DNA from: a virus
Lineage: Duplodnaviria > Caudoviricetes
DNA length: 64,000 bases
Virus record (IMG/VR): IMGVR_UViG_2854078061_000001
Span: 32,001 to 96,000 of that record
Direction: 5' to 3' (one strand)
Under the pieces are notes generated by a model, which did no database searches, was not told the DNA's origin, and saw only the letters and a list, made by a program, of their open reading frames with translations. Of the stretch, positions 12,222-57,292 are shown piece after piece (within the stretch, counting starts at the first letter, position 1; the number at the start of each line of letters is the position of its first letter). The position numbers were made by a program, and so were the translations under genes.

Positions 12222-13613
12222 ATGAAGTTTTATGACACCTCCGCGCTTCTTGATTTGGGAGCCGCCGCTTTCGAACCTGCCAGTGCAACAGCCTCTGGTG
12301 CAACAGAGCCGTTTCTGATTGCCGATATGACGCTGCACGAGCTGGAAGAGATCAAGACAAGCGGCAAGAAGAGCGAAGAGATCCGCTATAAGGCCCGTAC
12401 TGTAACCCGCCTGCTGGCCGAGCATCACGACGACAACACCTTTATGGTAGTGGCAGTCCCCATGTCTTCCCTGTTCTATATCCTGGATGGCAAACCGATC
12501 AGCGATAACAACGACGCGACGATCATGGCAACCGCCCGCTGGTATCTGGACGAGATGAAGCGCAATCTGAATGACGCGATTGAAGCCGGACTCCCGGAAG
12601 CACAGCGACAGATCCAGGCCAACATTGATTCTTTCAGGTTCGTCACCAGCGACCTAAGTTGCGCCAATATCGCCAGCGGCATTCTTGATCTGCCGATCGA
12701 GTTCTCCTATCCCGATGCAGCAGCAAGCGCCAATAATAACTACACTGGCTAGACTGAAGTCACTCTTGATGAAGGCGGCGAGGAAGCCATGGCGATGGCA
12801 TATCAAACCCACGATGAAGGCTATACATATCAGAATCTGTTTGACACTCCAGTGAATGGCTATCTGATTGTTCGTGATCCAGACACAGTAGACGATGATA
12901 TGCCGGCAGGCAATGCGGTAGGCTGGCTACGATGGAATGGCAAGAAATATGTACCACTCAAATACAAAAAGATCAGTAATCGCTTCACTGGCGACGTAAA
13001 ACCACTCAATGACCAACAGAAGCTCGCATTTGATATGCTGCAGAACGACGATATTACAGTTAAAATGCTGGCTGGAACATTCGGCAGCGGCAAGACAATG
13101 CTTATGGTGTCCTCTGCCATTGATATGATCGAGAAGCACAAGGTTGAGAAGCTGATCTGGATTCGCAATAACATCGAAGTCAAGAATACCAAGGAGTTGG
13201 GTGCACTACCTGGCACTCTACTAGAGAAGCTCGGCGCTGCTTCTTTTGCTGGACCTCTGGCTGATCACTTGGGCGGCGAAGCTGGTTTGGAATACTGGAT
13301 CAATAATGGGCAGGTAGAAGTAGCTCACCTTGGATTTATTCGTGGCCGCGACTACAAGAACGCAATTATTATGGTTTCAGAGGCTGAGAATCTGACCAAA
13401 GAGCATGTACAGCTGCTACTCGGCCGTGTTGGTGAAGGATCTATGCTGTGGCTTGATGGCGATCTGAAGCAGACTGACGAGGCCGTGTTTGAAAATAACA
13501 GCGGTATGCGTAAGGCAATTCAGTGTCTGGCTGGCAACCCGCACTTTGGATATGTCTACCTGAACAAGACAGAACGCAGCGAGACCGCACAACTGGCTGA
13601 CCTGTTAGACTAA
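12222..13613 (+). CDS. phoH: PIN-PhoH family ATPase (463 aa; internal TAG 12750 read through)
   Basis: N-terminal PIN (FYDTSAL, ELEEIK, NNDATI, TSD) in frame across TAG with PhoH domain (GTFGSGKT, RGRD, SEAENLT, GDLKQTD). Confidence 0.9.
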
Positions 13614-13627
13614 GGGGGCACAGCAGA

Positions 13628-14660: not shown

Positions 14661-14674
14661 AGGAGAGGCAAAAT

Positions 14675-15139
14675 ATGGAAAGAATACTAACGCCACGAGG
14701 CGGTGGACGTACATATGCGATATGCGAATACGCTGTCAAGAACAATTGCAATATCTTGGTGCCGATGGGCGGGACGGCTATATTATGTGCACAGGACTAT
14801 ATCAAGGAAATCGCAAGGAATCTTGATATTCAATATTAGGGGTATAGGGTTGATCATCAATGCCTTATAGTAGATTTACAAAGCAGAGCTCGCGGAGAAT
14901 ACAGTATTCACGTGATAACAACTACTTGTCCTCCCGATAATTATCGTGGATTGCACTTAGAGGATAAGCCACTTGTTGTTGATGATATTGACCGATGCTT
15001 TAAGTTCATGTGCTTCCCGAATGTGCGAATTGATGCCTGTTCTCTGATGACATATGATCCGAGCGAGGTTGCGTTTACACCGCCAACTGCACCTCAAGAA
15101 GTGCAGCGGGATGAATGCGTGTGTGACAGCTTGGTATAA
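14675..15139 (+). CDS. CxCExLL-tag protein 3, degenerate P-loop ATPase-like (internal TAG 14837)
   Basis: AAGGAG RBS; PRGGGRT and LVVDD motifs; frame open across TAG; ends DECVCDSLV*. Confidence 0.75.
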
Positions 15140-16349: not shown

Positions 16350-16625
16350 ATGAAAGAAAACGACTTTTCAAAACAGGATATTTATAATATTGGATTTGCC
16401 GTAGCTGATGCTGTGCGCGATTATGATGTAACTTACGAGGGTATCCTTGACGCGATTCAGGTATATGCAGAATAGCAGGAACTGATCGGCAATGCATCGC
16501 TTTATGATACGTTGTGGATGGAAGATGGTACGCCCATGTCCCCTTCTTTGACACGATATTTATTTCACGAGATGTACTGCCCAGATGATTATGGTTATGA
16601 TGAGGAGGACGGCGACGATGAGTGA
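16350..16625 (+). CDS. hypothetical acidic protein (91 aa; internal TAG 16473)
   Basis: AAGGAGG RBS; VYAE*QELIG; frame continues to a TGA overlapping the next start; absent from ORF track. Confidence 0.7.
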
Positions 16626-17186: not shown

Positions 17187-19730
17187 TTGTTTAGTCCACC
17201 ATTATATAGCGTACTAAAATTTAACTTGAATTATATCGTTTCTCATAACTATAATTTTAAACTGACACCAGAAGAGATGGAGCAGTATGAGGTCTTACAG
17301 GGCGACGATATGTTGTTCAGACAAATTCGGCTCATTTCCGACGACTAGAATAAATTCCAGCGCTTTATTATCTTTGTTGATGCAACAGGTGGCCAGAACC
17401 ACCCTGATGCTATTGATCATTTAGTAGAGCATGGATTCAAATTTAATGGCCAGAAATATCTGTTCTGTGAACGTAGTGCAAGTATGGTCCGTCAGAGCAT
17501 GTTAAGTTTTGTTGAGCGACATATCTACCCTGAACTTGACCGCCGCGTAAGCATGGAACTGGATTTTTCTGAGACACCCACCGTCCTGAGCAAGTATTAT
17601 GCTTATCGTGGTTTGATGCTGAGTAGCTGCCACTGCCTAGAGAACTGGTACCCCAAAATGATTGTTGTTCCAGACTATATGACAACGATCAAGAATCAGT
17701 GGATCGAGTATCTGGTAGACAAGACTGTGACGTTTAATGACCGCAAAACAGGCAAAGAGCGTACCTGGACTCAGAAAGATATCGCCACAAAAACAGTTGA
17801 CATTGATATCAACGCCTTTGATGGCGCTGGAATCTGCCACCCAAGTATCATGCGCGAATTTGAAAAGCGTATCGGCACTTCTGAACGGATGAACAGCTTG
17901 ATTTTGCGTGCTCCATATATCAAGGGTTGCTTACACGAGATTGATTACGAGCGTTTTTTTGAAGAGAACGGCGTTACAAAAATCAAGGACATCTGGGGCA
18001 TGGAATATGATGTAACACCTGGCAGCGAACCAATGATTATTATTACTGCTTCAATGTACAAGGGTCTCAAATATTTCAAGAAAACTGGTACCTATTCTGA
18101 CTGGGAGAGATATTGGGAACTTTTCAAGAAGTACGACAACTGCCTTGGTGTAGCTAAATGGAACTTTACGCTTGAACAAGAACCGCTTTCCACCCGTAGC
18201 AACTATCAGGTCATTCAAGATCTACAGCTCGACAATGAGTCTTTTAAGCATCTAGCTGACGACAGCATTACCTGGTATCAGAATATTGTCAAAGGCGACC
18301 CAATTTATACATACTGCTTCCTTGGTTTACTTGCCGAGAACAACGACCCGATGAATCATTACATGGCTGCTGCCCTGCGTAACCCAGTGATGGTGAAAGA
18401 GCCTGCAATCAAAGATTATATTCACTCGCTGCTTGATAAATATCGCAATGAGATGAAGTGCGGTCGGCTTTGGATGAATGCTACTTTTAAGTTCTGGGCT
18501 CCTGACCTTATTGCACTATTGCAGCACATTGGTGGCCTACCTGTGACTGGCTGCCTTGAAGACGGTGAGTTCTACAGCTTTGATCGTCGTGGTGTGATGG
18601 AGGGAGACCGCTTAATTGAGCGCAATCCCCATATCTCTGTTGCAGAACATGTAAAGGCCAAGGCCGTAGACAACGAATACACCCGCAAATACTGCAGCCA
18701 TCTTCAGAATGTTGCTATGGTAAATATCAAATCCATCGTGGCTTCCAGACTCAATGGTTCGGATTTTGATGGCGACCTGGTTCTAATCATCGATAATCCG
18801 CTGATGATGAGTGGTGTTCCTGATAATATCCCCATTACACTCGATGTTGAAGATAAGATCACTGCGTTGGCAGAATGTGATATTGTGAAGAACAAAGTTG
18901 CCTGCACCATTCGCGGATTGAAGAGTTCTATTGGCGAAATTTCAAACTACGCAACTGCATACCATAATAAGGTTCCGACCATGGAAAAGACCAAGAAGCT
19001 CTATCACGATAATATTTCGCTTTTGAGCATCTGCAACGGAAAAGCTATCGATTATGCTAAAACAGGTGTTCTATATCCGATCCCGCGTAATGTAGCAGCT
19101 TATGGTCGTCCTCTACCCTACTTTATGAAGTATGCAGGCCCTTACTACGCACGTTTACATAATCTCAGCAAGGCACATAGCAACATGAACCTGCTTTGCA
19201 TGAGTCTGGAGCGTTGGGAGCGCGGTGTACGGTGGCGTAAAGAGCCCGCAGGCAGCTTTGATTGGCATATCATGTACGATCCAGAGGTCTCCTATGACCA
19301 GGCAGTCTTTGATGAGATCGAAGCCATTTTCTTGGACTTCAACAAATGCCGCAAGGAACAGCTTGAGTTCGAAAAGAAATGTCGCAACTGGCAATTATAT
19401 CATAAGGACATCGAGTCGCGTATTACCAAAGAAGAGGCTAAGACATATGAGACGAACTGGCAGGCGATCTACAATGTCTACCGTAACAAGTGTAAGCTGG
19501 TGTGTCCTGATGTGAGAGAGCTGGCGAATATTCTTGTAGTGCTTTGCTATGAGAAGTATCCCAATAAATTCAAGAAGTTTTTGTGGCACATGGCCGGCGC
19601 TGGTGTGGTCGAAAATATCAAGCCGGTTCCTGTTCAGCTGCCAGTTCACGATCCGAACGGCGAGTACGAATACCTTGGCCAGCGATATAGTCTGGCTGAA
19701 CCGAAAATTTATGAAGCGAGGGTGAAATAA
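17187..19730 (+). CDS. YonO-like single-subunit (double-psi beta-barrel, RdRP-like) RNA polymerase (847 aa; internal TAG 17346)
   Basis: TTG start with GAGGAG RBS; catalytic NGSDFDGD, ERNPH, DGAG, AIDYAKTG motifs; position upstream of head genes as in SPbeta. Confidence 0.88.
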
Positions 19731-20270: not shown

Positions 20271-21083
20271 ATGGCATATACAACTTTCTACTGTAATGAG
20301 AATATACTGCTCGATCATTGGCAGGACTATCACGAGTCAAATCTGATGCTGCGAAATCTGCTGAAGCGAACCTCCCTCTCCCCTATTGAATGCGCCACCA
20401 TTTATTATGAGCGGATGAAAAATCCTGAGTCTGTCAGCTATGACCGTAGCCACTTGATCCAGACGTTCAGCAGAGGCCGTAAAAATAACGCGCCCATACT
20501 TGACGTACATCAAGTTGTGCTTTATCAGAAAGATCTGGACTATATCACAGAGGCGCGCCGAAAGTATCATATCAACTACGCACAATTACGTGTTCTGTTT
20601 GGGGTAATATTCTTCTGCCGGCTGTATGGAAGCGATACCTTTGCCTTGGATACCGAGTTCAAGATGAAACGTTTTGGTGGCTGCTTTGAAGAGCAGACAG
20701 AGATCATGTATTGCGCTGGGAAGAACTAGGACGACGGCTATAATACAGTGCGGGGCATGAAAGAGATTTCTGACGACTATCACCTGCTGAACAGAACCGG
20801 CACTGACGACATTGGATGCTTATACCAGTACCAAAATTTTGCCCTTGATAAGAATGACACGATTGCGTACACGTTCAATGTGACGCTTGAAAACAATCGG
20901 CTGAATTTAAGCGCCATAGTGCGAGAGCTATTTGACCCGAAGGAATGTTATTGCATCGTGTGTGGCGAACAGTATCACTCAGAAAAGCCAAATGCCAGCA
21001 GATATTGCAAAGGATGTGCGGCAAAGAAAGAACAGGCACGTCTAGCGAAAAAGAATGCGAATCGAAACAAACGACCGAAATGA
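20271..21083 (+). CDS. hypothetical protein with C-terminal zinc finger (270 aa; internal TAG 20727)
   Basis: Frame continuous across TAG; CIVCG...YCKGC. Confidence 0.75.
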
Positions 21084-21365: not shown

Positions 21366-22550
21366 ATGGACGAATTTAAGAAAGCGGACGGCGAGACCTT
21401 TGATGAATATATGATGCGGATTGGTGAGGCATGCAGCGAACGTAAGCTGACTTAGAATCAGGCAGCAGAACTGCTGAATGAAGCAACCGGCTCAGACTAT
21501 GGCGAATGCAGATATCGCAAGACCTATAAGTCGTGGAAAGATGGTTATGACTACGCTATTGATCACGCCAACGAAGAAACGATCCAGGATGAACTACAGC
21601 GACTGAAGATTGAAAAGATCAAATTACAAGATGAACGCAATGCAGCAAACAAAGTGTATCGCGATGTTGCCCGTGCCGAATCCATCAAGGAATTGATTCT
21701 GAAGAACGTTGCTCCGTATAACCCTGACAATTTTCTGAATGTTGTGCAATACGAAGGCAGCGGCCACGATGTGATTGTGTGCTTGTCTGATTTACATGCT
21801 GGCGCGGGTATTGATTCGGCGTGGAATAAGTTCAACAAGGATATCCTAAAGGCTCGGCTTGAGAGTTATGCTGCACAGGTGTTCAATATCGTAGCGCGAC
21901 ATACAGCCGAAAAGATTCATGTGCTGCTGTTGGGCGACCTGATCAATGGGCATATCCATGTTAATACCCGCGTGCAGAACAATGAAAACAGCATTGAGCA
22001 GGTTATGACGGCTGCAGAGCTGGTAAGTAATTTTGTTGCTACACTGTACGAGGTATGCCAGCATATTGACGTGTATTCTGTGAGTGGCAATCATTCACGA
22101 GTATTCCCCAGCAAAGAGGATCAGGTAGCAGGTGACGAACTTGAAGCACTGATTCCGTTCTATATGAAGGCACGACTGCAAAATCTGGCTGGCATTGATA
22201 TTAAAACAGAGAAGCTCGATCCGACCTTTGGTGGCTTTAAGGCTAGGAATAGTCTTGTGATGTACGCACATGGAGATAAGGACTCCCCTGCTAACGTCGT
22301 TGAGCACCTGACACTGATGGTGAAGCAGCCAATCGACATGGTGTTCCTTGGTCACCGCCACACAAACGGCATGACAACGGTGCATGGTACGAAGGTTATT
22401 GAGAGCGGCTGCGTTTGTGGCAGCGATTCCTATGCAATTGGACTGCGCAAAAATGATGTGCCGCAGCAGGCAGTGGCTGTAATCGATGACAGCGGCCTAG
22501 AATGTCTGTACGATGTCAAGCTGGAGAAGCCAGCAAAGATAGTAATTTAA
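21366..22550 (+). CDS. calcineurin-like metallophosphoesterase with N-terminal helical domain, YonJ-like (394 aa; internal TAG 21453)
   Basis: SDLH, GD, GNH, HGD, GHRH motifs; N-terminal KLT*NQAAELLN matches the LTWxxxAxxLN pattern. Confidence 0.85.
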
Positions 22551-22710: not shown

Positions 22711-22974
22711 ATGGAAGAAAAATATCACAAAGATTTAGGAGGCGATTACTTCTACTGCTATTCCAGACGGACAGCACTGTTTGTTCGCGCTATGGGAATT
22801 TTTTACGAAGAGATTGGAGAGCACCCGGTAACTGGCTCTGTATATACAAAATTCCGCAAGACGAAAAAACTGAATGAAGTTTTAAAACTATAGGATCAGA
22901 TCAAATATCGCTTCGATGATATGATGGACGATGGAACGGTGGTGATTGGCTATGGCCAGAGTTGCCGCAGATAA
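22711..22974 (+). CDS. small protein, DUF5659-like (87 aa; internal TAG 22891)
   Basis: YFYCYS...HPVTGSVYTKF...LNEVLKL*DQIK; read-through end overlaps next gene. Confidence 0.7.
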
Positions 22975-23950
22975 GAAACCGCCTCGTATCAAGGTTCCGC
23001 CCTCTTGGAGTGGTGGCAAATGTATGTGTTGCGGAAAAATCTATGACGTGCGCAAAGGTAATTTCTCAAAAACGAAGAGTCAATGGTTTATTGGTAACGA
23101 CGGATACCTCCCGTGGTGCAATGAGTGCCGTGAGAAGATGTTTGAGTTTTATGTTAAGAAGTATAACGATGAAGATGAAGCGATTGACCGTCTGGCTATG
23201 ATGTTCGATACCTATGTAAATGATAAATTGCTTGACGCATCAGAACATTCTGTGGCATCTGCTTTAAAAATTAACACCTATATGGGACGGCTTAATATAC
23301 GTCAGTATGCAGATAAATCTTATGACGATGTGATCGACCAGAAGAAAAAAGACGCTTTGGCTGCCGGTGATACAAAGGGGACAAAGGTCACTCTGAAGAT
23401 GAGAAAATTCTGGGGTACTGGTCTGGATGAAAAAGATTATTTATTCCTTGATGAGCACTATCAAAATCTTATCACTAGACATGAATGTAAGACGGCCGCA
23501 CAAGAAATTCTGTTCAAACGCATTGCAAAGGCAGAACTTAATTGCGATAAGGCTGATGCCACTGGCGACACAAAGAAAATAAAAGAAGCAAACGACAACC
23601 TGCAGAACCTGATGGGGTCCGCTCAGATCAAACCGAATCAGACGAACGATAACGCATTGGCTGAAACGAATACTTTTGGCACGCTGATTCAGAAATAGGA
23701 AGAGGAAGAGCCGATTCCAGAACCGTCGCCAGAGTGGCAGGACGTTGATGGTATCGGTAAGTATTTTAGAGTGTGGGTGCTGGGTACGTTGCTTAAGATG
23801 TTCAACTTGAAGAATCCATATCAAGACGAATTTGACGAAGAGTTTGAACGATATACTGCTCATAAACCAGAGACAAATGAGGACGATGACACAGATACTA
23901 GCCTCCGCGAAACTATTTTCGGTATTGGCGAAGGCGGTGGTTCCGCATGA
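22952..23950 (+). CDS. putative terminase small subunit, YonG-like (332 aa; internal TAG 23696)
   Basis: N-terminal CxxC...CxxC; FGTLIQK*EEEEPIPEP; read-through TGA forms an ATGA overlap with the terminase large start. Confidence 0.75.
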
Positions 23951-25704
23951 GTAAAGAGAAATTAACAGATAAGGAAGTAGCGAATACAAAATCAGAAAAA
24001 ATAATGAACGCAGTTGCCATGAGGGCATCATTCTATAGAGCGAATCCTCAGCGGTTTGCAAAAGACTATTTAAACCTGACATTGAAGCCATTCCAAGAGC
24101 TACTATTGTTTTTGATGGTGAGATGCACCGGCTTCTGCTTCATTGCTGCTCGCGGCCTTGGTAAGTCATTTCTAACCGCAGTTTTCTGTGTGATTACATG
24201 TATTCTATGGCCTGGTTCCAAGGTTTGTATCGCCTGTAAAGTAAGAAGCCAATCTATCAGTATTTTGGATGAAAAGATAATGAAGGAGATCTACCCCAAC
24301 AGTCCCCTTCTACGCTCTGAAATCAAAAAGGTCGATATCAACAATCAGAAAGCAGAGATTATATTTAAGAACGGCAGCTATATCAAAGTAGTCACTGCCA
24401 CAGATAGTAGTCGTGGTAGTCGAGCTACACTTCTCATCTGTGATGAATATAGATTGCTTTCTAAAGATGTTATAGATTTGATTTTGAAGAAGTTCCTGAA
24501 TATTGTTCGTCATCCTGGATATTTGGACAAGCCACAATATGCACATCTTGCAGAGCGAAACAAAGAATTCTACCTAAGTTCCGCTTGGTTCCAAAACCAT
24601 TGGAGCTATGAAAAATGTCAGGACTACTTTGTAAATATGATCGACTTTAATAAGAAATATTTCTGCGTATCCTTCCCGTATCAAATGTCAATCAAGAGCG
24701 GCTTGCTGTTGAAAGAAGCTGTAGAGGACGAAATGAGTGAATCAAGTTTTTCTGATTTGACATTTGCAATGGAGAATGAATGTAAGTGGCTTGGTGCTAC
24801 TGAGGGTGGGTTATTCCAATTTGATGACATCAACAAAACGCGCGTCATTGAAAAGGCGTTCTACGCACCGAATCTTTTACTTAATCAAGCTGCTATGGAC
24901 GTGCCGAAAAAGAAAAATGGCGAAGTACGAATTCTCACCGCCGATATTGCATTGATGAGCAGTCGCAAAAACGACAACGATGCAACCAGTATCTTCTTGA
25001 ATTGTATGCTGCCAAATAAATCAGGGCGCTATACTAGCAATTTTGTCTATTCAGAGAACATTGAGGGTATGAGTGCGCAAGATCAGGCACTAAAACTGCG
25101 ACGGTATTTCGATTATTTCAACTGTGATTATATCGGGGTTGACTGTAGAGGTGTTGGATTGCCTCTGGTTGACCTGTTGATGCGCGATATGTATGACCCA
25201 GAAACAGGCGAAACATATCCTGCGATTAGCTGCTGTAACAATCAAGAAATCGCATCTCGCTGTTCTGACAAAAATGCCAAAAAGGTCATCTAGGCAATTA
25301 TGGGCAGCTCTCAGTTTAACAGTGATGTAGCCATTGGATTACGCAGCGGTTTCCAGCAAGGACGTATCCATCTGCTTCAGAGTGAGTACGGATGTGAAGA
25401 CCAGTTGCGCAAAATCTATAAAGGCTATGATAAAATGTCGCCTACTGAACGAGCCGCACTACAGATGCCATATATCAATACCGGGCTTGCTGTAAACGAA
25501 CTTGTAAATCTGGGCTACGAAACCGTAAATAACGTTATCAAAGTCAAGGAGAAATCCGGCTGCCGTAAAGACCGCTACTCTTCCCTGTCTTACAACTATT
25601 ACATTGCGCAGCAAGTTGAACGAAGCATGGAGAAGAAGAATAAAAAGCCAACTTCGCTCACGTTTAACTTTAGAGCGCCTGTATTAAAGAAGGGAGGACT
25701 GTAA
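23947..25704 (+). CDS. terL: terminase large subunit (585 aa; internal TAG 25291)
   Basis: Walker A ARGLGKS, Walker B LICDE, LSSA, nuclease ADIA and C-terminal KDRYSS (after the TAG). Confidence 0.92.
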
Positions 25705-27227
25705 TGGCTGAAGATAAAATGCAGAAAAAGGTCCGCGTAACAAATGCCAAAGATGGCAAGACCTCTTATGTAACATATCAGGATCTTGTCAATGGCGTTT
25801 ATGCGAACCTGTCACATATCGGTATCCGTAATCTGGCATCGAATACCGACACAAATCCGACATATACAAAATATACGAAAGATCAGATCGTCACCTATCT
25901 TGGCAACCCCGCCAACTATGAGAAGCAGCTGCGAAATATGAGTAAATATCTATTCAATATTTCAAACTACTATCGCCGACTGATTCAGTATTTTGCGAAT
26001 ATGTCTACATATTCTTACACGATTTCTCCGTATGGACTTGATCGCTCTAAGACAATTAACGCCAATAAATTTAAGAAGGCGTATTATTCTGCTGTAACAG
26101 CAGTTGAGCTGATGAATATCCCGCACGAAGCCACGAAGATACTGACAATTGCATTCCGCGATGACGTTTACTATGGCTATGCGTGGGAGACAAATGACAG
26201 TTTTGCTTTTCAAAATCTTGATGCAGACTATTGTAAAATAAGCAGCATTGAGGACGGCGTTTATAACTTTGCTTTTGATTTTTCTTATTTTGATTCCAAC
26301 AAAGACAAGCTGCCCAACTATCCGCCAGAGTTTGAGACGATGTATAACCAATATAAGGCTGACTCGCAGAACTACAAGTGGCAGGAGCTGGACAGTTCCA
26401 AGTCCATTTGCATCAAAGTAAACGAGCACGATTATATCCCCATTCCCCCGTTTGTGAGTTTGTTTAGTGCGCTTGCCGATATTGAAGACTACCGTGCCAT
26501 CAGTAAAAACGCAAGTGAGACCAATAACTATAAGGCGCTGGCAATGGAGATCCCAGTGAATGATACTGACGGCTCTTTCCTGATCGACTATGATACAGCA
26601 AAAGAGTTCTATGACATGATGAGTAATGTACTGCCGTCGAATATTGGCGCAATTCTTACTCCCATGAAAATCAGCAGCTAGAACTTTGAAAAGAGCGGCG
26701 TGAACAGTGACTCTAAAGAGGTCGCAAATGCTGAGGCCGCATTCTTTACAAGCGCTGGCGTGAATAAAAATCTGTTCGGCGGTGGCGAAGATCCTTCTGC
26801 TACTACCCTGCAGCTGTGTACTGTGAATGACCAGGAGATCGTGTTTGCAGTGATGCGACAGTTGGAACGCTGGATCAATCGCAAGCTGAAGAGCGTTTCC
26901 AGTTCTTATAGGTTCCGCCTAAACTTTCTACCAGTTACTCATTATAACGTGACTGAGATGCATGAAAGATATCTCAAGGATGCCACCTATGGTATGCCGA
27001 CTCGAACCGCAGCTCTTGCAACTACTGGTTATGCGGGTAGCGATTATGAGAACATGACTTATCTTGAAAATGAAATCTTGAGACTTAGTGCTGGTGAAAC
27101 ACCGCTCAAGAGCTCCAATACTCAGTCCGGTTCCGCCGGGGATGAAGGTGGCCGCCCAACAAATGCAAGTAAGGGCGAGGGCCTGTCTGATGCTGGCAAT
27201 GTAAGCGCCGATAGACAGGAGGCATAA
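25704..27227 (+). CDS. portal protein, YonE-like (507 aa; internal TAG 26679)
   Basis: Directly after terminase; NYYRRLIQYFA motif; frame open across TAG; portal-typical size. Confidence 0.85.
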
Positions 27228-31746: not shown

Positions 31747-32763
31747 ATGACAAGATCTCAATATAGAGCCATGCTGAAACAGGATGGAGAGACGCAGCGC
31801 GACAGGGTGGTCAATAAGGCACTCCATGATACGCGCTTTTTAGCGCCAGTCAATCCTTCTTATAAAGAAGTAACGATAGATGACGTACCCCGCTGGGTAA
31901 ATATTATATCATCTACTGTTACAAACCAGAAAATATTCCGCACAAGACCTGGTGAGGATTTTGAGATCGGCAGCATTATGTACTGGGGTAAGAGCCACTG
32001 GCTGATTACAGAACGTGATGCAGACGATGAGATTACCGTGCGCGGCCGCATTCAGATCTGCCAGAAACAAATCGTGTGGCAGGATGACCAGACAAAAAAG
32101 ATCGTATCTCTATGGGCAACTGTGGAAAAGCCGTATTACTCCAACCTGAGTGAGAATAAGGTAATGAGTTATTCAACCCGTGAATTCCGCATTCAAACCC
32201 CGTTCGACGAGTATTCTGCCCGTCTGAACATTGGAAAACGGCTGATGTTGGAGATCGTCAATGGAGAACCAAAGACCTATCGAATCACGTCGATTGACCA
32301 GATGACTGGCCGAATTGACTATGATAATGACCAGATCGGGTTCCTTTCGTTTAACGTTGAACAGGATCTTTACAACGCAGAAACAGACAATGTAGAGAAA
32401 ATGATCTGCAATTATGTGCCGGAAGATGCTTCCGATAACGTGGAAATCACCTATCCTGACGACAACACAGTAGACGACAGAGTGCTTTCGATAGAGTTTA
32501 CGGGCGAACCGTCCATCCCAACGGGCGGATTTGGCAAGCTGTTTACTGCAAAAATCGATGGCGAAGTGTACGACGGCGCAGAATAGACGCTTACCGGCGA
32601 TTGTACTCCTGCTGGAGTATGTTTCAAAGGCGGTAATACGACTACGACAGGTGCAAAGTGTAAGATCACTTGTGTGGATGATTCTAAGCTGATTGGACAA
32701 GTCGTGGTACTGACGGTTAAAGCAGCCGGCCTTACCGAAAAGATCGAATTGGAGGTGATCTGA
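31747..32763 (+). CDS. putative head closure protein with C-terminal Ig-like domain (338 aa; internal TAG 32584)
   Basis: DGAE*TLTG; read-through ends 1 nt before the next ATG and contains its GGAGGT RBS. Confidence 0.7.
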
Positions 32764-32764
32764 T

Positions 32765-33262
32765 ATGAATCTCGATGAGATCGGGGTATTCAAAAATCGG
32801 GTCGTTTCCAAGTTGATCAATGACGAAAATGTCCTTGATGTCCTATTGGGCAATACAGATAATATCGACGATCCCGAAACTCTTCTGCTTGGTAAGAATG
32901 GGTCGGGTGAAGGTGGATGCGTGTTTAAGTATGAGTATGTTCCAGATACGCAGGAAAACTCAAAAACGTTTTTGTGTGTTGAGGTCGTGCCAGAACAAAC
33001 CAGCGGTGATTCTATTACGATGATGACCATTTACGTATTTGCATATTGCAGTAAAAACCTTATGCAGACATATCATCGGAAAGGACAGGCTGGGACACGC
33101 ATTGATATTTTGGCCAGTGATATTGATAAGCTTCTGAATGGAAACAAAGAATTTGGAATTGGACCGCTTGAATAGGCTGGAAGCAGCATCTATAAGCCAG
33201 CGCAGTGCTATTACGGACGAATGCTTGTTTATCAGGTCGGCTCTTTTAGGAGGGCTCGCTGA
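32765..33262 (+). CDS. putative tail terminator/completion protein (165 aa; internal TAG 33173)
   Basis: FGIGPLE*AGSSIY; read-through TGA overlaps the next ATG (TGATG). Confidence 0.7.
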
Positions 33263-39800: not shown

Positions 39801-42372
39801 TAATGAAGAAGTAAAATTATATAAAGATCTTCGTAATGCTGCCCCAGTGGATCAGACAACTAAACAAAATCTTCTGGAAAATCAAAAAGAAAAAGTTGGT
39901 GCTCTTAGAAAAGAGATCCATGACAAAGGGTTAAATTCTTCTCCAGAGTATAAAAAATACACTTCTCAATATCACAATAATATTTCCGGAATAGATTCTG
40001 CAATTTCAAATAGTTCAGATGCCGCTCGTATAAAAGCGAACAACGAAGCAGACGCTGAGGTTCTCAAAAAAATTATCAGTCTATATCAGGAATTAAATAA
40101 GGAATCAACTCATCGTGTAGCGTTATTTAAAGACGAAGATGTCGAAAAATTAAAAGAAACAGATGAGGAAATTCAGCGGCTAACTGACGATATTGAAAAA
40201 TTAGAAGAGGCTGCCAAATACAGTGGGATTGATCTTGCTGGAAATGATGCTTATATGAAAGCATTTGAGAACTCTGACAAAATCCGAGCAGCTAATTCTA
40301 AGCAGTTTAATTCAAATCGTTCCAATTATGTCGAACAACAGACTGATGCCTTGATGGCCGAATATCGTACCCAAGTTAGCCGCATGCAAAATGCCGGTGA
40401 AAAAAGAGAACGTGCTACTGCTGCAAATCTTCCTTGGAAGGCAGAACAGTATAATACTCAGTACGAAGAAGCAGAAACAGCTTTGAAAGCACTCGATGAT
40501 GAATTACAAAATCGTGGCTTACAACTTGAGCAATCTTATTTGGACTTGTTGCATGAAAAAGCTCAGGCAGAAAATGTTGTTAATGAGGCAAAAAGAAAAA
40601 CGTATAAAACAGATGAAGAATCTACCCAAGTCACCAATAAAGAAATTGCAACGCTTGAAAATTACAAGACACAGCTTAGCGGAGTTCTTGGTCGATTGGA
40701 AAAGGCGGGTGCTGGCGATAGTTCTACGTATAAAACAGTAAAGGATTCTTCAAGGGTTCTTGATGATTTTTATGATAGAATGCATTCTCAACTAAACGTT
40801 GACGGAAGCAATAAAGATCAGGTCGCTGTTGAATAGGCCAATGCAAATGGGATTGAATATGTAAAAGATTATAATAGTGCGATCCTTGCTTTGACGGTTT
40901 CATTAAAAGAGTATAAGAGACTAGCTGAGGACCTCTCAACAAGAAACACACTTGAAAATTCTTTCATCAGAGCATCAACGAGAATTTCAAATTTAAAGAG
41001 TGAATTACACGATTACCTGGAAAAATATCCAAAAATCATGCAGAGTGAACTTGCCGGAGATGTTGAAAAGCTTCAGAGTGATTTGGATTCTTCAACGGCA
41101 TGGATGCGTGATAATGAACTCGGTAAGGATCTTGCAAAAATTAAACAAAGGGCAAAAGATCTTGGTCTTGAGGCGCAGAATTTACTTGATATTTTTGAAA
41201 AGCTTTTTGGCCAGCATTTGAGCACTATGATCACTATGGCTGCGTTGCACAAAATGCAAGAAGCTGCACAGAAAATTTATCAAAACGTCGTTGACATCGA
41301 CACTGCAATGACAGAACTACGCAAAGTCACAAGTCTAACTGCAAGCGAATATGAGTCGTTTATGGATCGAGCTGCAGATAATGCTACACAACTAGGCATT
41401 AGTATTAGTGACTTTATCAATAGCACAGCCGATTGGGCGCGTCTTGGTTACACAGAACAGGAAGCTGAGGAACTTGCTCGTGTCAGTAGTCTGATGAAGA
41501 ATGTTGGTGACGGTATTGAATCTGCGAGTGATGCTTCTTCTTACTTAATCTCTGCGATGCAAGGCTTTGGATTGGCTGCCGATCAGGCAAGTGAATTTCT
41601 GGATGTTATGAACCAGATTGCAAACACTGAACCTGTCACTGCAAACGACCTTGGTGTTATTATGCAGAAGTCGGCCGCCGCAATGAATGCTGCTGGTAAT
41701 ACGTATCAGGAGACAATGGCTATGGCAGCCGCTGTTAACGGTGTCCTTCAGGATAACGATACTAGTGGTACATATCTGAAAACTCTGAGTATGTATCTGC
41801 GTGCTGCTAAGACTGATGCTGAATCGGCTGGCATTGAAATTGATGGCATGGCTAATTCTGTATCTGAACTTCGTAGTAAATTAAAATCCCTAACCGGCGT
41901 TGATATTATGTCTGATGCAGCTGGTAAAAACTTTAAGTCTACATATCAGATTATGAAGGAGCTGTCTCAGGTTTGGGGTAATCTTTCTGATGTTACTCAA
42001 GCAAATGTCACTGAACTGATTTCTGGTAAACGCGGAGGTCAAGCAACTTCTGCCCTGCTTAACAACTTTAGTGTCGCAGAAGATGCTATGAAACAAGCAG
42101 CAAATGCTACCGGAAGTGCGCTGGCGGAAAACGCAAAATACCTTGATTCTATTCAAGGTCGTCTTGCACAGTTGGACGCTTCTTTCCAATCTTTGTCTAC
42201 TCATGTTCTCGATTCTGGTATTGTAAAATATACAGTTTCGTTCTTAACAGCCATCGTAAAAATCACAGACAATATCACTAAGCTTTCAGGGGCATTGCCT
42301 CCGATTGCTGCTGCCGTTTCTGGTATTCTGTCTATTATGCAAGCAAACGGCAAACTCCAAAATGGTGCAGGT
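36832..42372 (+). CDS. tail tape measure protein, exon 1 (1847 codons; internal TAG 40834)
   Basis: Long coiled coil, then TP901-type core (IDTAMTELRKV, ADWARLG, GTYLKTLSM, FKSTYQI). Confidence 0.85.
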
Positions 42373-44164: not shown

Positions 44165-44186
44165 TGCCATACGAGTTAGACACGTC

Positions 44187-44630: not shown

Positions 44631-44656
44631 AAATTCTTTTCTCCTCAAGAAAACCG

Positions 44657-47600
44657 ATATTATCTTTCCTGACAGCTTATTCCGTTGATAAAGACGGCAA
44701 TACTGTTGGTGGATTAAAACAGTTGACATCTTCCGCTAAAAATCTTGTAACACAACTAAAGAAAACTTTCACTACTGTATCTGTTGGCTATAAGAATTTT
44801 AAAGATATGGACGAAGCTGTTCGTGGCAGTGGTTCTTCTTTCTCTGATTATATCAGATGGGCATCAGAAAGTGAAGAGGCAACTGAAGCTTTTGGTCTTG
44901 CAACCTTGTACGCTAAAGCTCGTGTTATTGCACTCAATATGGCCGTAGGTGCTGGCATTGGTTTAGTAGTTTCTTATTTCTCAAAGAAAATTATCGAAGC
45001 AGCGCAACGTACAGATAAACTCGCAGAATCTTCCAAAGAAGCAGCAGATGCTGCAACCAACACAAAAACTTCTTTGAAAGAACTCGCAGATGAATATGAA
45101 AATCTTGGAGATAAATCGACCTAGGACACTGATAGTTATGACAAAGCGAAAGGCATTCAGGAACAAATTCTTCAACTCGCTAAAGATCAGGGTACATTAG
45201 ACGAAGATAAAGTCAACAAAATTGATCTTCAAAATGGTAAATACGAAAATCAACTTGCTGTTTTGAAAAAAATTCGTGAAGAGCAAGTTCGTGCTTCTAC
45301 TGATGACTATGAAGATGATAAGAGAAGGCAAGGCCAGAAATTAGTTAGCGATGCAAAAAGCGCTGTTGACGGTGGCTATGTTTTAACTTCGTCTTTTGAT
45401 CACGATATGGCTGAAGATTTACAGGCTCAAGGTTTCAACCTCTTTAAAGGTATTAGTAATAACTCACTAGTCATCGGTCCCGAAGATCCAAATGATCCTC
45501 AGTCGGTTCTTGACTGGTATGACGATCTTACCGAAGCCTTAAAAGTATTGAGAAAGCAATATTCTGATGCTGACCTTGAAGAGAAAGGTATCTATGAAGG
45601 CTTGTACAATATTCTTTCCGCTCAAAAAGAAGCGTTGGATGATCAGGTTGCTGCTTACAGAAATTCCGCTGATGTTCTGAAGAAGAATAAAGAAGAAGTT
45701 GGTAAATACGATCTTTCTAATGATCTTTCTGCAAGTAAAAACTTCCGTGACAATCCGCAGCCTCTGTCCGATTCTGAAGAAGCCAAAATTGATTCAAAAA
45801 TCCAAAAGACGAAAGAGTATAAGGACGCAGTCGAAGAAGCCCAGGAAACAGAAGCCAAGTGGGAATCTGGCGGTTTCAATAAGTATGGCAACGTTGATAA
45901 TTTCAACCGTGATAAGATTGACTGGACCAAAGAGAATCTCGAAAAGTATAAAGATTTTGTTGCTGAGCAAAACAAATTCAACCCTGGCGAAATAGAAGAA
46001 GGTGGATACTCCACTGTTCTCGGCGTATACGACAATCTTTATAGAGAAAGCCCCGAAATGCCGCTCATGGCTTACACTCCGATGCTTCAGACTGAAGATG
46101 GCCTTGTTCCGCTTACCGAAGATCAGGTGCGCAGCTATATTGAGACTATTGCAGAGAAGTGCTGGACAGAAGATGACACCATTGACCTCGACAAGTTAAT
46201 GAAGCTTGATGCTACCGGACTTGAGCGAGACATCAATGGTGAGATGATTCGTGTCAAAGGCATGATTGCAGGTGTTGAGGGCGGCACTGGTTCTGATGGT
46301 AAAAAGCTCACAAAAGCGGATATCATGGCTATCTCTGGTTCAAGCAATGACGAAATTGCTCAAGAACTGTATGGTGGGGAAATGGGCGATTATTCTGGCA
46401 TGGGCTGGTTGAGTAAATATATTGGTCGTTCTATGCATGACGCTCAGGCTGTTGCCCAAGAAGGTAAGGATAATATTGAATCGATATATGACAGTCTATA
46501 TGATAACCTTGCATATGGGAACGATATTACCACTAAGAATCAACTCTCAAATGATTTACAAGGTGCTTTTGATGATATTGCCGAATCTCTTGGTAAAGAC
46601 TCTCGTGCAATGACAGTATCTGATGTTGTTGGTCTTACTGCCGATGATGTAGAATTAACTGACGAACAGGCCGCAGCTATCAATACTCTTACAGAGGCAG
46701 CCACGAAATACAAGACTTCTATTCAGGGTGTGGCTGAAGCTGGCGAAGAAAATGGTATGTTTGGTGGTATCGAAAATGCCGTAAATGGCGTATCGTCTGC
46801 TATTCAACAGATGGAAACCATCTCTCAGAATATAGACAACATCCAATCTGCATATAAGGCTTGCACAACCGCTATGGACGAATATAACAAGTATGGTTAT
46901 ATGAGTGCAGACGCTTTGCAGGGTCTCTTGAGCATGAATGACGAGTATCTTGCATGTCTGGATGTTGTAGATGGAAAGTTAAAGATCAACAACGAACGTT
47001 ATGCTGATCTAATTGTTGCGCAGTATACCGAAGCTGAGGCAACCGCAATCGATCAAGCCATGAACGAACTCAATGCGCTTCAAAAGGAAGATGCTAAGAA
47101 GAAAACCGAGGATTTAACGACCGCCACCGAAGAGCAGCAGACCGCCCTTGAAAATGCCGTACCCGCTATCCAAAATGCAACAACCGCTACCGGTGACTTA
47201 GCTATCGCTCTGGCGACCGCACAAGGAGCAGCCGAAGGCGATGACGCAATGCAGGCGAAAATTGACACAATAACAGCCGCATTGAATACTCGTCTGACCG
47301 CTATTCATAGTAATATGCAGACTGCTATTAAAGGCGGAAAAGAGCTTAAAAACCAACTTAATGGATTTAACAAAACAAATAAAGGATCAAGCTCCAAGTC
47401 TGTAACAGATGCTGCATCCGCATTCGATACACTGACAAAAGCCATGAAGGAATATAACCAGTATGGCTATATCACTGTCGAAACCATGAAGTCTCTTATG
47501 ACTTTGGAAGATAAATTTACGTCTTGCTTAGTAAAAAATGGAGACCATTTAGAAATCAATGCAAATGCGTTTAGAAAGTTAGTAGAAAATCAATTAAAGG

Positions 47601-50600
47601 AAGAAGAGGCGAACGGGAAAGCGTCTAAGAAGGCAACCGAATTGTCTCGAATCCTTTCGTATTTGGATAAAAATGTTCACTCTTCTACAATTACATTTGA
47701 ACAGCTTACGGATGCGATTAAAGGATATGGTTCTGCTCTTTCTGATGCTAAAGCTGTAACAGATGACTTTAAGGGTGTTTGGGACAACGGAAAAGTAGTC
47801 AAGGAAAAGACAAAAAAGAGCCGTACTGGTGCTCTGGATTATGAAGGCACTGAAGCTCAAAGTGCCGCGCTGCAATCCATTAAAAAGTATAGTGAATATG
47901 ATCCGGATCTGATCAATAAAGCCTACAATAAAGATACTGGTAAAATCGACCTAAGTGGTGATGTGTTAAAGGATGCAGTCGTTAAATCTTTGGAACAACA
48001 GGCAAAAGCCGCCAGAGATGAGAACAACGCGGCTGCCAATGCAATTGCTGATAGTTATGAAACTGCTGCCAATAATATCAAGAACAACGTTATTTCTGTT
48101 CAAGACTACTTCGACGGACTGGGTTCTACGGTTGAAGAGTTTAGCTCCAAGATCGACGATATGCAGAACGCATGGACCGATTTGAGCGATGTCACAAACG
48201 AGTATAACACTTACGGCGGTTTGAGCATTGACAGTATTCAGAAACTGCTTACAATGTCTCCCGAGTATCTGCAGTTCCTCAAATTGGAGGGCAACCAGCT
48301 CGTCTTTAATAAAGAAGCGATGCTGGCAAAAACCAAGGCCGACATTCTGGCAAAGGCTGCAGAGCTCGAACTAAAAGATGAGACCAAAGATCAAGCAGAG
48401 ATTCTACGTGCGTTGGCGGATTCTCTTGATAAGGGCGCAGATTCGATGGAGGGCATGGGCAAATCGGCTGACAAGCTGAAGACCCTGATGTCCCAACTGA
48501 ACACTGTTTTGAATTCTTTTATCGGTGTTTTTGATGACTTGAACGACAAACAGTCCAACGACCTCAAGATTCAGGGTGAAGCTTGGATCGATGTTATTGA
48601 CAAGCGTATTGACGCACTCAATGAAGAAAACGATGCACAGGAGCGATCAATCGAACTGGCAAAACTTCAGGATGAATACGAGCGTGCAAAGGCCAATAAG
48701 ACTGTTCATGTATATGGCGGCAGAGGTCAAGGTTTTGTATGGAAAGCAGATGAAAATGCCGTTCGTGAAGCTGGGAAAAACCTATCTGACAAGCAGCGTG
48801 AATATAAGAAGAAAGATGAAATTGACAAGCTGGAAAAGCTCAAAGATAAAGTTCAGGAAACCAATAATCTTATTGGCACCAGCTGGGATGATTATCAGAA
48901 GAAGCTGAAATACACAGCCGAGTTCGAGGCTATGACATTTGAGCAGATGGAAGGTCACTATGACGGTTTCAAGAGTAGTGTCCTTAACAATATGCAGGCC
49001 ATTCAGGGCGCGACAAACGTCAAGAATGTTATCACTGATATTTCCAATTTGATCTCTACTTTGGAGACACTGGCGAATATTTTGAACATTCTTAATGGCG
49101 GAAGTGGTGACGGCGGCGGAGTCTTTGGCTTCATCAACCAAATCAAGAACATGTTCACTGGCGAAAACGGTGATTTTGATCTGGGTGGTGGCTTTAAGAA
49201 GATGTTCGATGGAGCTGCTAAGGTGGTTTCTGACGGTTGGAACTGGATCACTGGTAAGAACAGGGCTGGTTCTGCCGCACTAAAATCAGACACCACTGCG
49301 ACATTGGATATCCTTGGCAACACAATAAAGGTGAATACCGGCGATATTCAGCGTGTATCTGGTGGATTCTTTGAGAGACTAGTTGGTGCTGCGAAAGACA
49401 ATCTTGGCAGTATCGGTAAGTTCTTCTCAGGTGCATAGACATCTATCTCTGAGAAAACCGGATTGATGTTTACTGATATTGGCTCGTTCTTCACAGAAGG
49501 ATTTGGCCTGTTGAACAGTCAGACAGGACTTGGTCTTGGTGGCATTGTTGAGACCGTCGGAAGTATGTTTGGCCCAATTGCGGCTGGAGCACAGTCTATC
49601 GGTAGTGCCATCTCGTCTGGCGTTGTAAGCTTCTTCCCTTCTATCTTCGCCGGACTTGGTACTCTGGTGACTAGCGTTGGCAGTGCAATGGCCGCTATGA
49701 TGCAAGCGATTGCTGCTGCTCTTTCTTCCATTCCTATCGCTGGTTGGATTGCTGCCGCCGCAGCTGTTGCAGGTGCAGTTGCTCTAATTGCTACGATTGC
49801 TTCGATTGCAAGTAATGTTTCCAATACACAGGTTGATGAACCTACTCCCGCATTCCAAGCAAAGAAATATGCAAAGGGTACTCGTGGCGTTAAGAAGAGC
49901 CAGATTGCAAACGTTGATGAAAAGGGCGAAGAGCTGATTGTTCGTAACCCAGACCAGGGACGCATGACCTACCTTGAAAAGGGCGACGGTGTTATTCCTG
50001 CAAAGGAAACCGACAACCTGATGGCGATTGGCGCTGACCCCGAGGGCTGGCTGGCAAAGGGCTTGGCCGAAGTGACTGGTAGTGCCGCAGCCGGTGCCGG
50101 TATGAGTGCCCAAGGTCCGAGCGCTCAGTTGAGTGGTGCTGCAGCTGCCGCAGCCGCTGGCGTTGGTTCGATTTTCAAGAGCGAGTATGACGAGATCCTT
50201 GGCGATACAACTGAGTTTATGTCTGGACTCTCTGACATCTTCAAGAAGAGTGATAATCCGATTATTGCCGCCGTTCAAAGCATGATTTATATGGCCACTA
50301 AGACTGTATATCGTATGTCTACGGTCGGTAAGATTAACTCTTCTAAGACAGTGACAGAATCCACCAGCAACACAAAGAAGGCGACCCAGAGCCAAATTTC
50401 GTCTATGACGAGCAACTTTGAGTCTAGCTGGAAATCTGTGGCTGGCGAGCTCGGTCTGGACACAAAGGATATTGAAGAAACCAGCAAAAAGATGTCTGAG
50501 AAGATGAATGAGCTGGTGAACAACACCTTTGATGCGCTGAACGAAAACACCGGCCTTAGCGCCGAGCAGGTTGAAGATGTCACCAACACGATGTTCGATT

Positions 50601-54815: not shown

Positions 54816-57292
54816 CATATCTTCCGACTGACGCAGACCTGGCGCTATTGAACAATCATTCGTCTAATATTTACTGCCGCATTGATATGCTGAACAAAGA
54901 TTTTATTACAATTGATAGTTTGGAAGGTCTTGTGATCGATGGTTCTATTTCTATCGACTCAGAATCTGACGTGCGGCGAACCTTTAATGTGACCTTGTAT
55001 CTGGGTAAGAAGAGCGGCATTTCAAGCCTGACGGAAGAGGATTGGATCAGTAAAAATGTGCGTGTATTCATTGGTCTGTCAGGAAGAGGAATGTCGAAAA
55101 TCAGTGCTTCAAAGAGTATTGACGAGATGATCAGGGAAAATGCGGATTATCAGCTCGCTGCGACGAATTATGATGATTTGATTCAGGACATCACAAATAG
55201 AGGCTATGCAAAATACGGCAATATCGACAATCTGAATCGAGATGTGCTAGTGTGGACACGAGCCAATATCTCAAAGTATCATACGTTCTTTGACCAGATC
55301 AATGACGGCACGCCACCGGATGACCCAGCTGAAGCAGAAGAATGGTACACCAAACTTGGTGATTACTCTACAGTTTTGGGAAGTGATGACCCAATTTGTC
55401 AAGATGGCCCTTATATCGCATTTACACCGATGCTGCAGACCAAAGACGGACTTGTGCCGCTTGTGAAGGATGATATCTGGGCTTATCTGGATGCTGTGGC
55501 AACAAAAGCGAAGTCAATGAGCGGCGGTCTCTCCCCTGCCAATATCTTTGAGGTAGATAAATCAGGCATCGATAGTTTCGTGTATGGTAACAAAATGCAT
55601 GTCCATGGGATGATTGCTGCTGTTGAAGGTATGGTTCTGAACGGAGTTACGCTTGGTAAGGTGGATGTTTCTGCTATTGCCGGTTAGAGTGAGGACGAAT
55701 TAAGGGAGACCTACGGAAAAACCAGTGTGTTTGCAGGACATTCCATGCACGACATTCAAGCAGAAGTGATTGACACAAAGACCGCGTTGAATGAGTTGTA
55801 TAACGACCTGTTCCTTAGCTATTCCAATTCAGCTGATAATTCTTATGTTAATGGTGTAAAAATCTATTGGTACAACGAGAGGTGCTATACATTTACATCC
55901 AATGGCTTTACATATAGCGCAACAGAAAACACTGTGCAGGCCAGCTGTGTTGACTTGGTTTCTCGTACCAACGGAGACTTGGGTGGACAGCTGGTTGGTG
56001 GTACACATCGCATTGAGAAAGGCACTCGTATCGGTGATGCCATCTGGACGGTGATGAGAGATGAGACGGAGTTTAAGAAATATTCTATCGACTATTGGAG
56101 CCGCACTGTTCCACATGACTTGGATTATGATACTGGCTCGACTGTTTGGGATATTCTCTCAGAATTGCGTGACCTGTATTATCCGTTTGAGATGTATTTT
56201 GACGATGATGTGTTTGTATGCAAGGAAATCCCCAGTGGATTTGACGACCCGCCTGTACTTGACCCGGAAGTATTCGAGAAGCTTGTGACAAACGATGGCG
56301 AATCGGCCACGGTGGATTATTCCGCTGTTCGAAACTGTGTCGAAGTGTTTGGTGCGACGATTGAAGCGGATGGAGCTGCAACTGTAAAAGGATGGTCTGG
56401 AACAAATAAAACAATCAACCTTGTATTGAACGCAACCGAATCAACATGGAAAAGTGAAACGAAAGTATCTTTTGTGGCTCCTGCAAATGTTGAAGCTGCC
56501 AAGACGGACAAAAATGGCAACGTAACAAGTGGCGCTATGACAGTTGTGTTGACATTTACATGGAAGTACAAGGATAAAGACGGCAATGAACAAGTTGGCT
56601 CTGAGACAAAGACCAGCACGCTGTATCGTTCTTTGACTGATGCCAATGGTTCAGATGTCATTCAAGACCCCGGATGTATTAAGGCTACAAAGTATTATGT
56701 TCTTCAGTGGAATCCGAATACTGGCCGCATCTACTTTTTGGGCCAACAGCAGAGTCACGCTATGGCAAAACTGGTGGACGAAATCCCAGCTACCAAAGAG
56801 ATCGAAGCTCAAAAGGCAGAAGATAACTGCGACAATATGGCTTTTATCTGTGTGAATGACCCGAACAATATTGACGACCTGTACAATGCACGGTTATCCA
56901 TTGAAAAGATCGGTCGTAGAACTGAGATTCTATCGGGTGGAGACTACGAGAATTACACCACGGATGACGCAGCCATGGAAGTTTGTCAATACGAACTGTG
57001 GAAGCGTGCCCGCCTGACGGACGGCCTGAGTGTGACCACGCGACTGGTTCCGTGGCTCGACGTGAATGAAAAGATTCAGTATGCTGCCAAATATCTGGGC
57101 GGTAAGACCCCCGTGGATTGGATCATCAAGAGCATCTCTATGAATCTTGGCGAAGGCACAATGTCACTTTCTTTGAGCCGCTATTACCCCTATTACACTT
57201 ATATCGTAAACAACAAATATACGTTCTATCAGGACAATTTGTTTGATAAATATTTTCCCGAATTAACTGCCACTACGGCAGATGAACAATAA
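54812..57292 (+). CDS. baseplate hub/tail protein, DUF5048-like, with inserted domain (826 aa; internal TAG 55685)
   Basis: GSISIDSESDVRRT N-terminus and VPWLDVNEKI C-terminus joined in frame across TAG. Confidence 0.75.

Follow-up and report, generated by a model that had tools for sequence, protein, structure and literature searches.

In-frame TAG codons occur in conserved late genes of the phage DNA described here, a stretch of 64,000 nucleotides (nt; hereafter the window) comprising bases 32001-96000 of the 108,149-bp IMG/VR record IMGVR_UViG_2854078061_000001, for which CheckV gives a completeness of 73%. From the comparison of aligned codons and tRNA genes we conclude that in this phage lineage TAG very probably means tryptophan (Trp, W), and that it would be decoded by a Trp-derived phage tRNA with a CUA anticodon, tRNA(CUA). 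At 13 of the 16 TAG columns in the window the relatives' codon is TGG, and neither of the glutamine (Gln, Q) codons, CAG or CAA, was found in relatives at any of the 16 coding columns. A preliminary description of the window had preferred Trp to Gln on the strength of protein family motifs, and this preference can now be based on aligned codons.

TAG and TGG alternate at the same sites in close relatives

Loci of relatives were fetched around the portal gene (73 loci), the tail gene (71) and the PhoH gene (59), and the codon aligned to each TAG was read. Throughout the text, G000 denotes the window's own record, G001, G003, G004, G005 and G016 denote records of relatives, and L numbers stand for fetched loci. 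TAG and TGG alternate, with rare exceptions, at columns 12750, 16473, 20727, 21453, 22891, 23696, 25291, 26679, 32584, 33173, 40834, 45122 and 55685. All 16 TAGs are listed below with the gene or open reading frame (ORF) that contains them, in window coordinates and with the strand in brackets, followed by the residue number of the TAG, the residues covered by a PHROG profile match, if any, and the codons in relatives.

12222-13613 (+), PhoH-like ATPase gene: TAG 12750..12752, residue 177; phrog_2765 match 28-461 spans the TAG; TAG 40, TGG 19, with TGG in the TAG-free G004 and G005
14636-15139 (+), ORF of no family: TAG 14837..14839, residue 68; TAG 26, TAT 14, CGA 2
16350-16625 (+), small ORF: TAG 16473..16475, residue 42; TAG 36, TGG 23, and in another set of relatives TGG 22, TAG 17
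17187-19730 (+), phrog_8308 gene: TAG 17346..17348, residue 54; profile match 11-813 spans the TAG; TAG, GAC/GAT, TAC/TAT, AAC
20271-21083 (+), ORF: TAG 20727..20729, residue 153; TAG 42, TGG 27, with W in L161 (66% identity)
21366-22550 (+), exonuclease gene: TAG 21453..21455, residue 30; phrog_284 match 25-387 spans the TAG; TAG 42, TGG 27
22711-22974 (+), small ORF: TAG 22891..22893, residue 61; TAG 41, TGG 30, with W in L161
22946-23950 (+), YonG-like gene (phrog_3314): TAG 23696..23698, residue 251; profile match 25-300 spans the TAG; TAG 40, TGG 31, GTG 1
23947-25704 (+), terminase large subunit gene: TAG 25291..25293, residue 449; phrog_26582 match 236-566 spans the TAG; TGG 40, TAG 34, TTC 1
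25704-27227 (+), portal gene: TAG 26679..26681, residue 326; phrog_2739 match 29-499 spans the TAG; TGG 65, TAG 8, GTC 1, with W, W, F, I and V in more distant relatives
31723-32763 (+), gene: TAG 32584..32586, residue 288; TGG 59, TAG 6, with W in L161
32765-33262 (+), gene: TAG 33173..33175, residue 137; TGG 48, TAG 16
36832-42408 (+), tape-measure-like gene: TAG 40834..40836, residue 1335; tape-measure PHROG matches 1206-1848; TAG 11, TGG 1 where well aligned, 6 more TGG poorly aligned, with TGG in G004 and G005
44723-51751 (+), tape-measure/tail gene: TAG 45122..45124, residue 134; TGG 17 (4 more poorly aligned), TAG 6
44723-51751 (+), the same gene: TAG 49436..49438, residue 1572, with the frame open for 770 codons beyond; TAG in 52 of 52 well-aligned relatives
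54812-57292 (+), tail protein gene: TAG 55685..55687, residue 292; TAG in 65 relatives, TGG in G003 and G005, TGT in G004

The relatives split cleanly into TAG-using and TAG-free genomes, and at single sites TAG and TGG swap between genomes that are 97-99% identical. Swapping between such near-identical genomes is the behaviour of synonymous codons; it also fits a recent and still ongoing spread of TAG.

A census of whole genomes gave the same residue. When G000 was compared with G004, a complete TAG-free relative, 12 of the 13 aligned TAGs fell on Trp columns, which make up only 205 of 15,828 columns, or 1.3% (binomial P 2.9e-22), while none fell on the 492 Gln columns (Fisher P 3e-7); against G005, likewise complete and TAG-free, the Gln columns with TAG were 0 of 547. 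The picture did not change with G005 as the reference or with G001 and G003 as queries: per genome pair, TAG stood on 12 or 13 Trp columns and on none of the approximately 500-950 Gln columns.

One in-frame TAG was also seen in G004 itself, a genome of the TAG-free class without a CUA tRNA. It is located at residue 43 of a leftward gene of 194 amino acids (G004 42042-42626, - strand, in L124), where other genomes have TGG, and it may be either a genuine nonsense mutation or a remnant from before the suppressor was lost.

Distant homologues mostly have tryptophan at two TAG columns

In the terminase, column 25291 is occupied by W in 110 of 114 homologue clusters and by Y in the other 4 (51-92% identity). 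The 100 full-length homologues of the exonuclease have W (79, down to 38% identity), Y (1) or Q (20) at column 21453. All 20 proteins with Q are close homologues in the public clusters P0121-P0151, and one of them, P0133, proved to be a letter-for-letter translation of locus L067 with TAG read as Q (an exact match, established for this one protein). We thus take the Q entries to be products of gene calling under code 15 (NCBI table 15, in which TAG is Gln) and not evidence for Gln; once they are set aside, the column is W in 79 of 80 homologues. Pipelines limited to codes 4, 11 and 15 would either split genes of this kind or put Gln in place of the phage's Trp.

The TAG-bearing genes are otherwise intact

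According to the preliminary description, 16 TAGs split 14 genes. The 16 TAGs stand, as every listed position is a TAG inside a single + strand frame that is open when TAG is taken as sense, but the number of genes does not: we counted 15 frames, among which 44723-51751 has two TAGs and the other 14 have one each. Table 11 cuts these 15 genes into two or three pieces, whereas under table 11 with TAG as sense they are intact. In six genes (PhoH, phrog_8308, exonuclease, phrog_3314, terminase and portal) one PHROG profile match extends over both sides of the TAG, which makes them split genes rather than adjacent separate ones. Other features pointed out earlier also held on inspection, namely the lack of any other stop or frameshift in the TAG-bearing genes, and the ATGA overlap at 23947 and TGATG at 33260, both of which agree with the ORF coordinates. 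The same is true of the remark that no gene ends in TAG: in the gene model of the 108-kb record, 112 genes terminate in TAA (61) or TGA (51) and all in-frame TAGs lie at least 26 codons from a stop, and it is from these ends, together with the lack of any TAG within 25 codons of a stop, that we exclude TAG as a terminator.

Coding density, proposed earlier as a means of telling the codes apart, was calculated as 82% for table 11, 86% with TAG as sense and 87% with TGA as sense, and thus did not separate them; it is uninformative because each half of a split gene begins anew at an alternative start codon. Consensus errors are excluded, as these TAGs were met again in the GenBank entry MT836002 and in dozens of IMG/VR assemblies made independently. 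Logan contigs from three other studies showed no difference at 20727-20729, the one site compared. A 17th in-frame TAG, at 11962, was rejected as non-coding, since it belongs to a low-complexity ORF in a divergent intergenic region and is CAG in relatives.

TAG-using genomes carry a tRNA with the CUA anticodon

Complete relatives have 15-19 tRNAs in two leftward clusters. In TAG-using genomes the CUA tRNA is placed between tRNA-Ser(UGA) and tRNA-Lys(UUU), and in the TAG-free G004 the same slot is taken by tRNA-Trp(CCA); G005, also TAG-free, has a tRNA-Trp(CCA) and no CUA tRNA. Two pattern searches, covering three variants of the anticodon stem, revealed a CUA anticodon arm in 21 of 31 TAG-using records vs none of 19 TAG-free ones, and in 13 of 14 vs none of 10 when only records at least 90% complete were considered (P 6e-6). 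The sole near-complete TAG-user without a CUA tRNA is G016 (IMGVR_UViG_3300045988_117474; loci L144-L150), a 123-kb record rated 100% complete that has no tRNA clusters. In it the late arm of this phage, with 44% GC, is fused to about 63 kb of unrelated DNA with 52% GC, and the contig is probably chimeric or mosaic.

The neighbours of tRNA(CUA) are unrelated to it, with no translation genes nearby, and Rfam detected neither a hepatitis delta virus (HDV)-like nor a theta ribozyme beside the suppressor tRNA. Some other RNA elements were noted in these genomes. In G001, Rfam matched a group I intron adjoining a GIY-YIG endonuclease gene near the tRNA cluster (L107:7897-9163, - strand) and a RAGATH-5 ribozyme (L109:18381-18433, - strand). 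A tRNA-like gene of the left cluster (- strand; L107:14168-14240 in G001, 32216-32289 in G003, 34147-34221 in G004) starts with UUU and has no encoded CCA. Its loop varies among close relatives, being either a 6-nt CUAUAA or a loop with the anticodon AUA, GUA, GAA or GCC, and the anticodon of the tRNA in this slot seems, on this comparison, to change fast. In G000, about 3.9 kb before the window (28024-28114, - strand), there is a 91-nt tRNA called as Ile(UAU), in which the anticodon stem is weak, with 3 bp, and the extra arm long; in relatives, the slot next to it contains tRNA-Met(CAU) genes of 76-92 nt. This tRNA(UAU) was considered as a suppressor and rejected, as it is not a CUA tRNA.

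The CUA tRNA is a derivative of tRNA-Trp

All eight CUA tRNAs have the discriminator base G73 and an encoded CCA end (G-CCA), like the phage tRNA-Trp(CCA) genes, and their first pair is G1-U72. The anticodon loop reads CU-CUA-AA in the CUA tRNAs and CU-CCA-AA in phage tRNA-Trp, so that C35U is the sole difference between the loops. Among 127 other phage tRNAs, the closest to the CUA tRNAs is the tRNA-Trp(CCA) of G004, mostly at 0.71-0.77 identity. From the phage's own tRNA-Gln, on the other hand, they differ in the 1-72 pair, the discriminator base and the anticodon loop. ARAGORN labels them ‘Pyl’, a label given to any CUA tRNA, and the cloverleaf here is an ordinary, Trp-like one, with the TAGs standing at Trp columns.

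The main identity elements of bacterial tRNA-Trp are G73 and the anticodon (PMC12135181). G73 is present in the CUA tRNAs, but in place of the anticodon C34-C35-A36 they have C34-U35-A36. Judged from its sequence, the CUA tRNA is thus a tRNA-Trp derivative short of one identity determinant. We found no match to a phage tryptophanyl-tRNA synthetase (TrpRS; PF00579) or release factor (PF00472) in G000, G001, G003, G004 and G005, although both were detected in control genomes, and for this reason we suppose that charging would fall to the TrpRS of the host. It is on balance rather likely that, in gut Clostridia, the ordinary host TrpRS attaches tryptophan to a naturally occurring tRNA-Trp(CUA), despite the C35 determinant. 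If true, either the TrpRS of these hosts tolerates U35, or the tRNA body has features that compensate for it and that act against the glutaminyl- and lysyl-tRNA synthetases (GlnRS and LysRS). It would also mean that a third stop-codon code, with TAG as Trp, is reachable by one point mutation in a tRNA that the phage already carries, and that this code has been repeatedly gained and lost among near-identical genomes.

TAG is concentrated in the late genes

The TAG-bearing genes are conserved and belong to the rightward late arm; PhoH, exonuclease, terminase, portal, tape measure and tail proteins are among their products. In the rightward late genes there are 22 TAG vs 222 TGG codons, which means that about 9% of Trp codons, or roughly 1 in 11, are TAG, while elsewhere the numbers are 1 and 178 (0.6%; P 5e-5).

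A mechanism may be proposed in which a C35-to-U change in the phage's own tRNA-Trp produced tRNA(CUA). This tRNA would be a transcript of the leftward arm to which host TrpRS attaches Trp. It would compete with release factor 1 (RF1) of the host, and full-length late proteins might then be made only once enough of it had accumulated. In such a scenario TAG would be a translational gate on lytic genes in addition to being a synonym of TGG. A gating idea of this kind has been proposed for code-15 and code-4 phages.

Points against tryptophan and alternative explanations

Several observations weigh against TAG being Trp, or against parts of the mechanism just outlined. Two columns do not look like Trp columns, as 14837 is a Tyr column and 17346 is variable, with Asp, Tyr and Asn, and column 49436, in which every well-aligned relative has TAG, is uninformative as to the residue. 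The window's own record has no copy of tRNA(CUA), since ARAGORN found no suppressor (CUA) tRNA in either the window or the 108-kb record; this can be explained by G000 being a 73% fragment: compared with complete relatives, about 38 kb at the left end are missing, and with them the region in which relatives carry the tRNA. The margin by which CUA tRNAs resemble tRNA-Trp more than other isotypes is modest (mean best identity 0.73 vs 0.69). C35 is contacted by bacterial TrpRS through three hydrogen bonds (PMC12135181), and no compensating phage TrpRS was found in the five genomes named above. An amber (CUA) derivative of Escherichia coli tRNA-Trp was, according to work cited in PMC2965240, charged by GlnRS and inserted Gln, and 28 of 29 phage CUA tRNAs inserted Gln in an E. 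coli extract (10.1101/2025.10.30.685624). Finally, that TAG acts as a gate is only an inference.

These points bear on several alternative explanations. That TAG is simply read as Gln, as in crAss-like, Lak and phAss-1 phages, is suggested by Gln being the sole TAG reassignment reported for phages of standard-code hosts, by the Q which public protein catalogues already show at these TAGs, and by CUA tRNAs being good substrates of GlnRS in E. coli. We nevertheless consider it highly improbable here, because in the census TAG keeps to Trp columns and never falls on a Gln column, because no relative has a Gln codon at any of the 16 coding sites and distant homologues have W, and because the tRNA is unlike the phage tRNA-Gln. 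Another possibility is that the suppressor, although it does derive from tRNA-Trp, receives a different amino acid in all or some cases (such as Gln or Lys, by way of U35), that the resulting substitutions are tolerated, and that TAG appears at Trp codons merely since TGG-to-TAG is one transition. Such mis-loading would agree with C35 being a TrpRS determinant, with the conversion of E. coli tRNA-Trp(CUA) into a Gln tRNA and with the failure to find a phage TrpRS. However, CAG-to-TAG and AAG-to-TAG are also single changes, which would be neutral if TAG were Gln or Lys, and TAG was found at none of about 500 Gln and about 1,200 Lys columns. Moreover, in the terminase and exonuclease TAG replaces Trp residues that are conserved down to 38-51% identity, and TAG and TGG interchange as freely as synonyms between near-identical genomes. 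Mis-loading is therefore unlikely, if somewhat less so than plain decoding as Gln.

That the TAGs come from faulty assembly, or from nonsense mutation in a prophage undergoing decay, has a probability close to nil. It is true that nonsense codons arise most commonly by way of TGG-to-TAG and that pseudogenes can mimic a stop-to-Trp signal (PMC8629427). Yet dozens of assemblies, made independently and from many samples, have these TAGs, the protein is conserved downstream of them, essential genes are among those hit, there are no other stops or frameshifts, and a matching tRNA co-occurs with TAG use. A different kind of objection accepts that TAG is Trp but holds that it is a neutral synonym which drifted in once the tRNA existed, with no role in timing or in the choice between lysis and lysogeny. 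In line with this idea, TAG accounts for just about 9% of the Trp codons in late genes, near-identical genomes do not have it at the same sites, and several late genes have no TAG, including the putative capsid gene and that for a 2,271-amino-acid protein. On the other hand, only 1 of 179 Trp codons is TAG in the leftward and early genes vs 22 of 244 in the late ones, and drift alone predicts no such bias. We thus see a purely neutral TAG as possible, but as the less probable option.

The phage lineage and its probable host

Similarity to Brevibacillus phage Sundance, the Tsamsa-like Bacillus phages and the SPbeta-like phages, at 30-42% identity, is seen in the portal, the terminase and the genes around them. 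The window is best explained as the late arm of an SPbeta/Sundance-like siphophage of about 150 kb that infects gut Firmicutes. IMG/VR contains dozens of relatives (portal identity 82-99%), with complete genomes of 140-150 kb, and the human-faecal contig MT836002 in GenBank is 88% identical. A first scan of bacterial genomes for relatives of the window phage gave no match; the nearest match in bacterial genome bins is L161, a 142-kb contig with 66% identity that was binned with a Lachnospiraceae metagenome-assembled genome. This binning is a weak hint as to the host, which is probably a member of the gut Clostridia. Apparent stops in L161 turned out to be ordinary gene ends.

Two observations were made around the tape-measure and tail genes. 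The 2.3-kb gap (42409-44722) between the tape-measure-like frames 36832-42408 and 44723-51751 contains small ORFs on both strands, and an Rfam search of window positions 41800-45200, with E up to 0.01, gave no match there. A second set of IMG/VR contigs (L185-L200 and others, 131-136 kb), missed by the portal query, has a tail gene about 90% identical to that of the window phage. These contigs also have TAG at columns 49436 and 55685, from which it follows that either TAG use extends beyond the portal-defined clade or the tail module has been exchanged between clades.

Comparison with known codes and suppressor systems

According to surveys of recoded phages, only TAG→Gln and TGA→Trp have been seen in phages with a code different from that of their host, a restriction ascribed to which host synthetases can be co-opted. 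phAss-1 is a case of TAG→Gln, and the Zeta crAss-like phages use opal or amber suppression, with Trp demonstrated for TGA only. In a screen of 213 phage suppressor tRNAs, those with CUA inserted Gln, with the exception of one that inserted Ala and a Tyr pair (10.1101/2025.10.30.685624). We did not find TAG (UAG) as Trp in the phage literature searched, where the reassignments are TAG→Gln and TGA→Trp, and the preliminary description of this code as new to phages agrees with that. Phage suppressor tRNAs combined with in-frame stops in late genes are a familiar class of mechanism, unlike the assignment of TAG to Trp.

If TAG is Trp in a lineage without its own synthetase, this would contradict the rule of two reassignments in phages, and raises the question of how a CUA tRNA keeps its tryptophan identity. 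The sister genomes, which either lack TAG and have tRNA-Trp(CCA) or have tRNA(CUA) together with about 20-30 TAGs, form a natural before-and-after series, and so the code change appears to have been caught at an early, sparse stage. The tRNA(CUA) might, in addition, serve genetic-code engineering as a natural amber-Trp part.

NCBI table 32, the plastid code of the parasitic plants Balanophoraceae, has TAG as Trp with TAA and TGA as stops. The codon meaning is the same as in the window phage, in which TAG would likewise mean Trp and all other codons are standard. However, table 32 belongs to a plastid with no evolutionary link to the phage, whose code would depend on a phage tRNA in a cell that itself uses the standard code.

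Code-15 gut phages (crAss-like, Lak, Garnet, phAss-1; 10.1101/2021.08.26.457843, PMC10607447, PMC9523058) have their own CUA suppressor tRNA, as does this lineage, and both have TAG concentrated in late or structural genes, presumably a standard-code host, and no dedicated synthetase. The lineage described here would differ from them in the meaning of TAG (Trp), in the Trp body of the tRNA and in the sparse use of TAG, about one per gene. In code-4 phages (Jade, Agate), which encode a tRNA(UCA), TrpRS and RF1 (10.1101/2021.08.26.457843), a stop codon is likewise converted to Trp by a phage tRNA derived from tRNA-Trp. Reading TGA needs a change at position 34, which TrpRS tolerates, whereas reading TAG needs C35U, a change in a TrpRS determinant; and code-4 phages carry a TrpRS and a release factor, neither of which was found in this lineage. 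A counterpart of the tRNA itself is the E. coli amber suppressor, which, according to work cited in PMC2965240, has the same CCA to CUA change in a bacterial tRNA-Trp body with G73. There, the tRNA is charged by GlnRS and inserts Gln, while in this phage the genomic record points to Trp.

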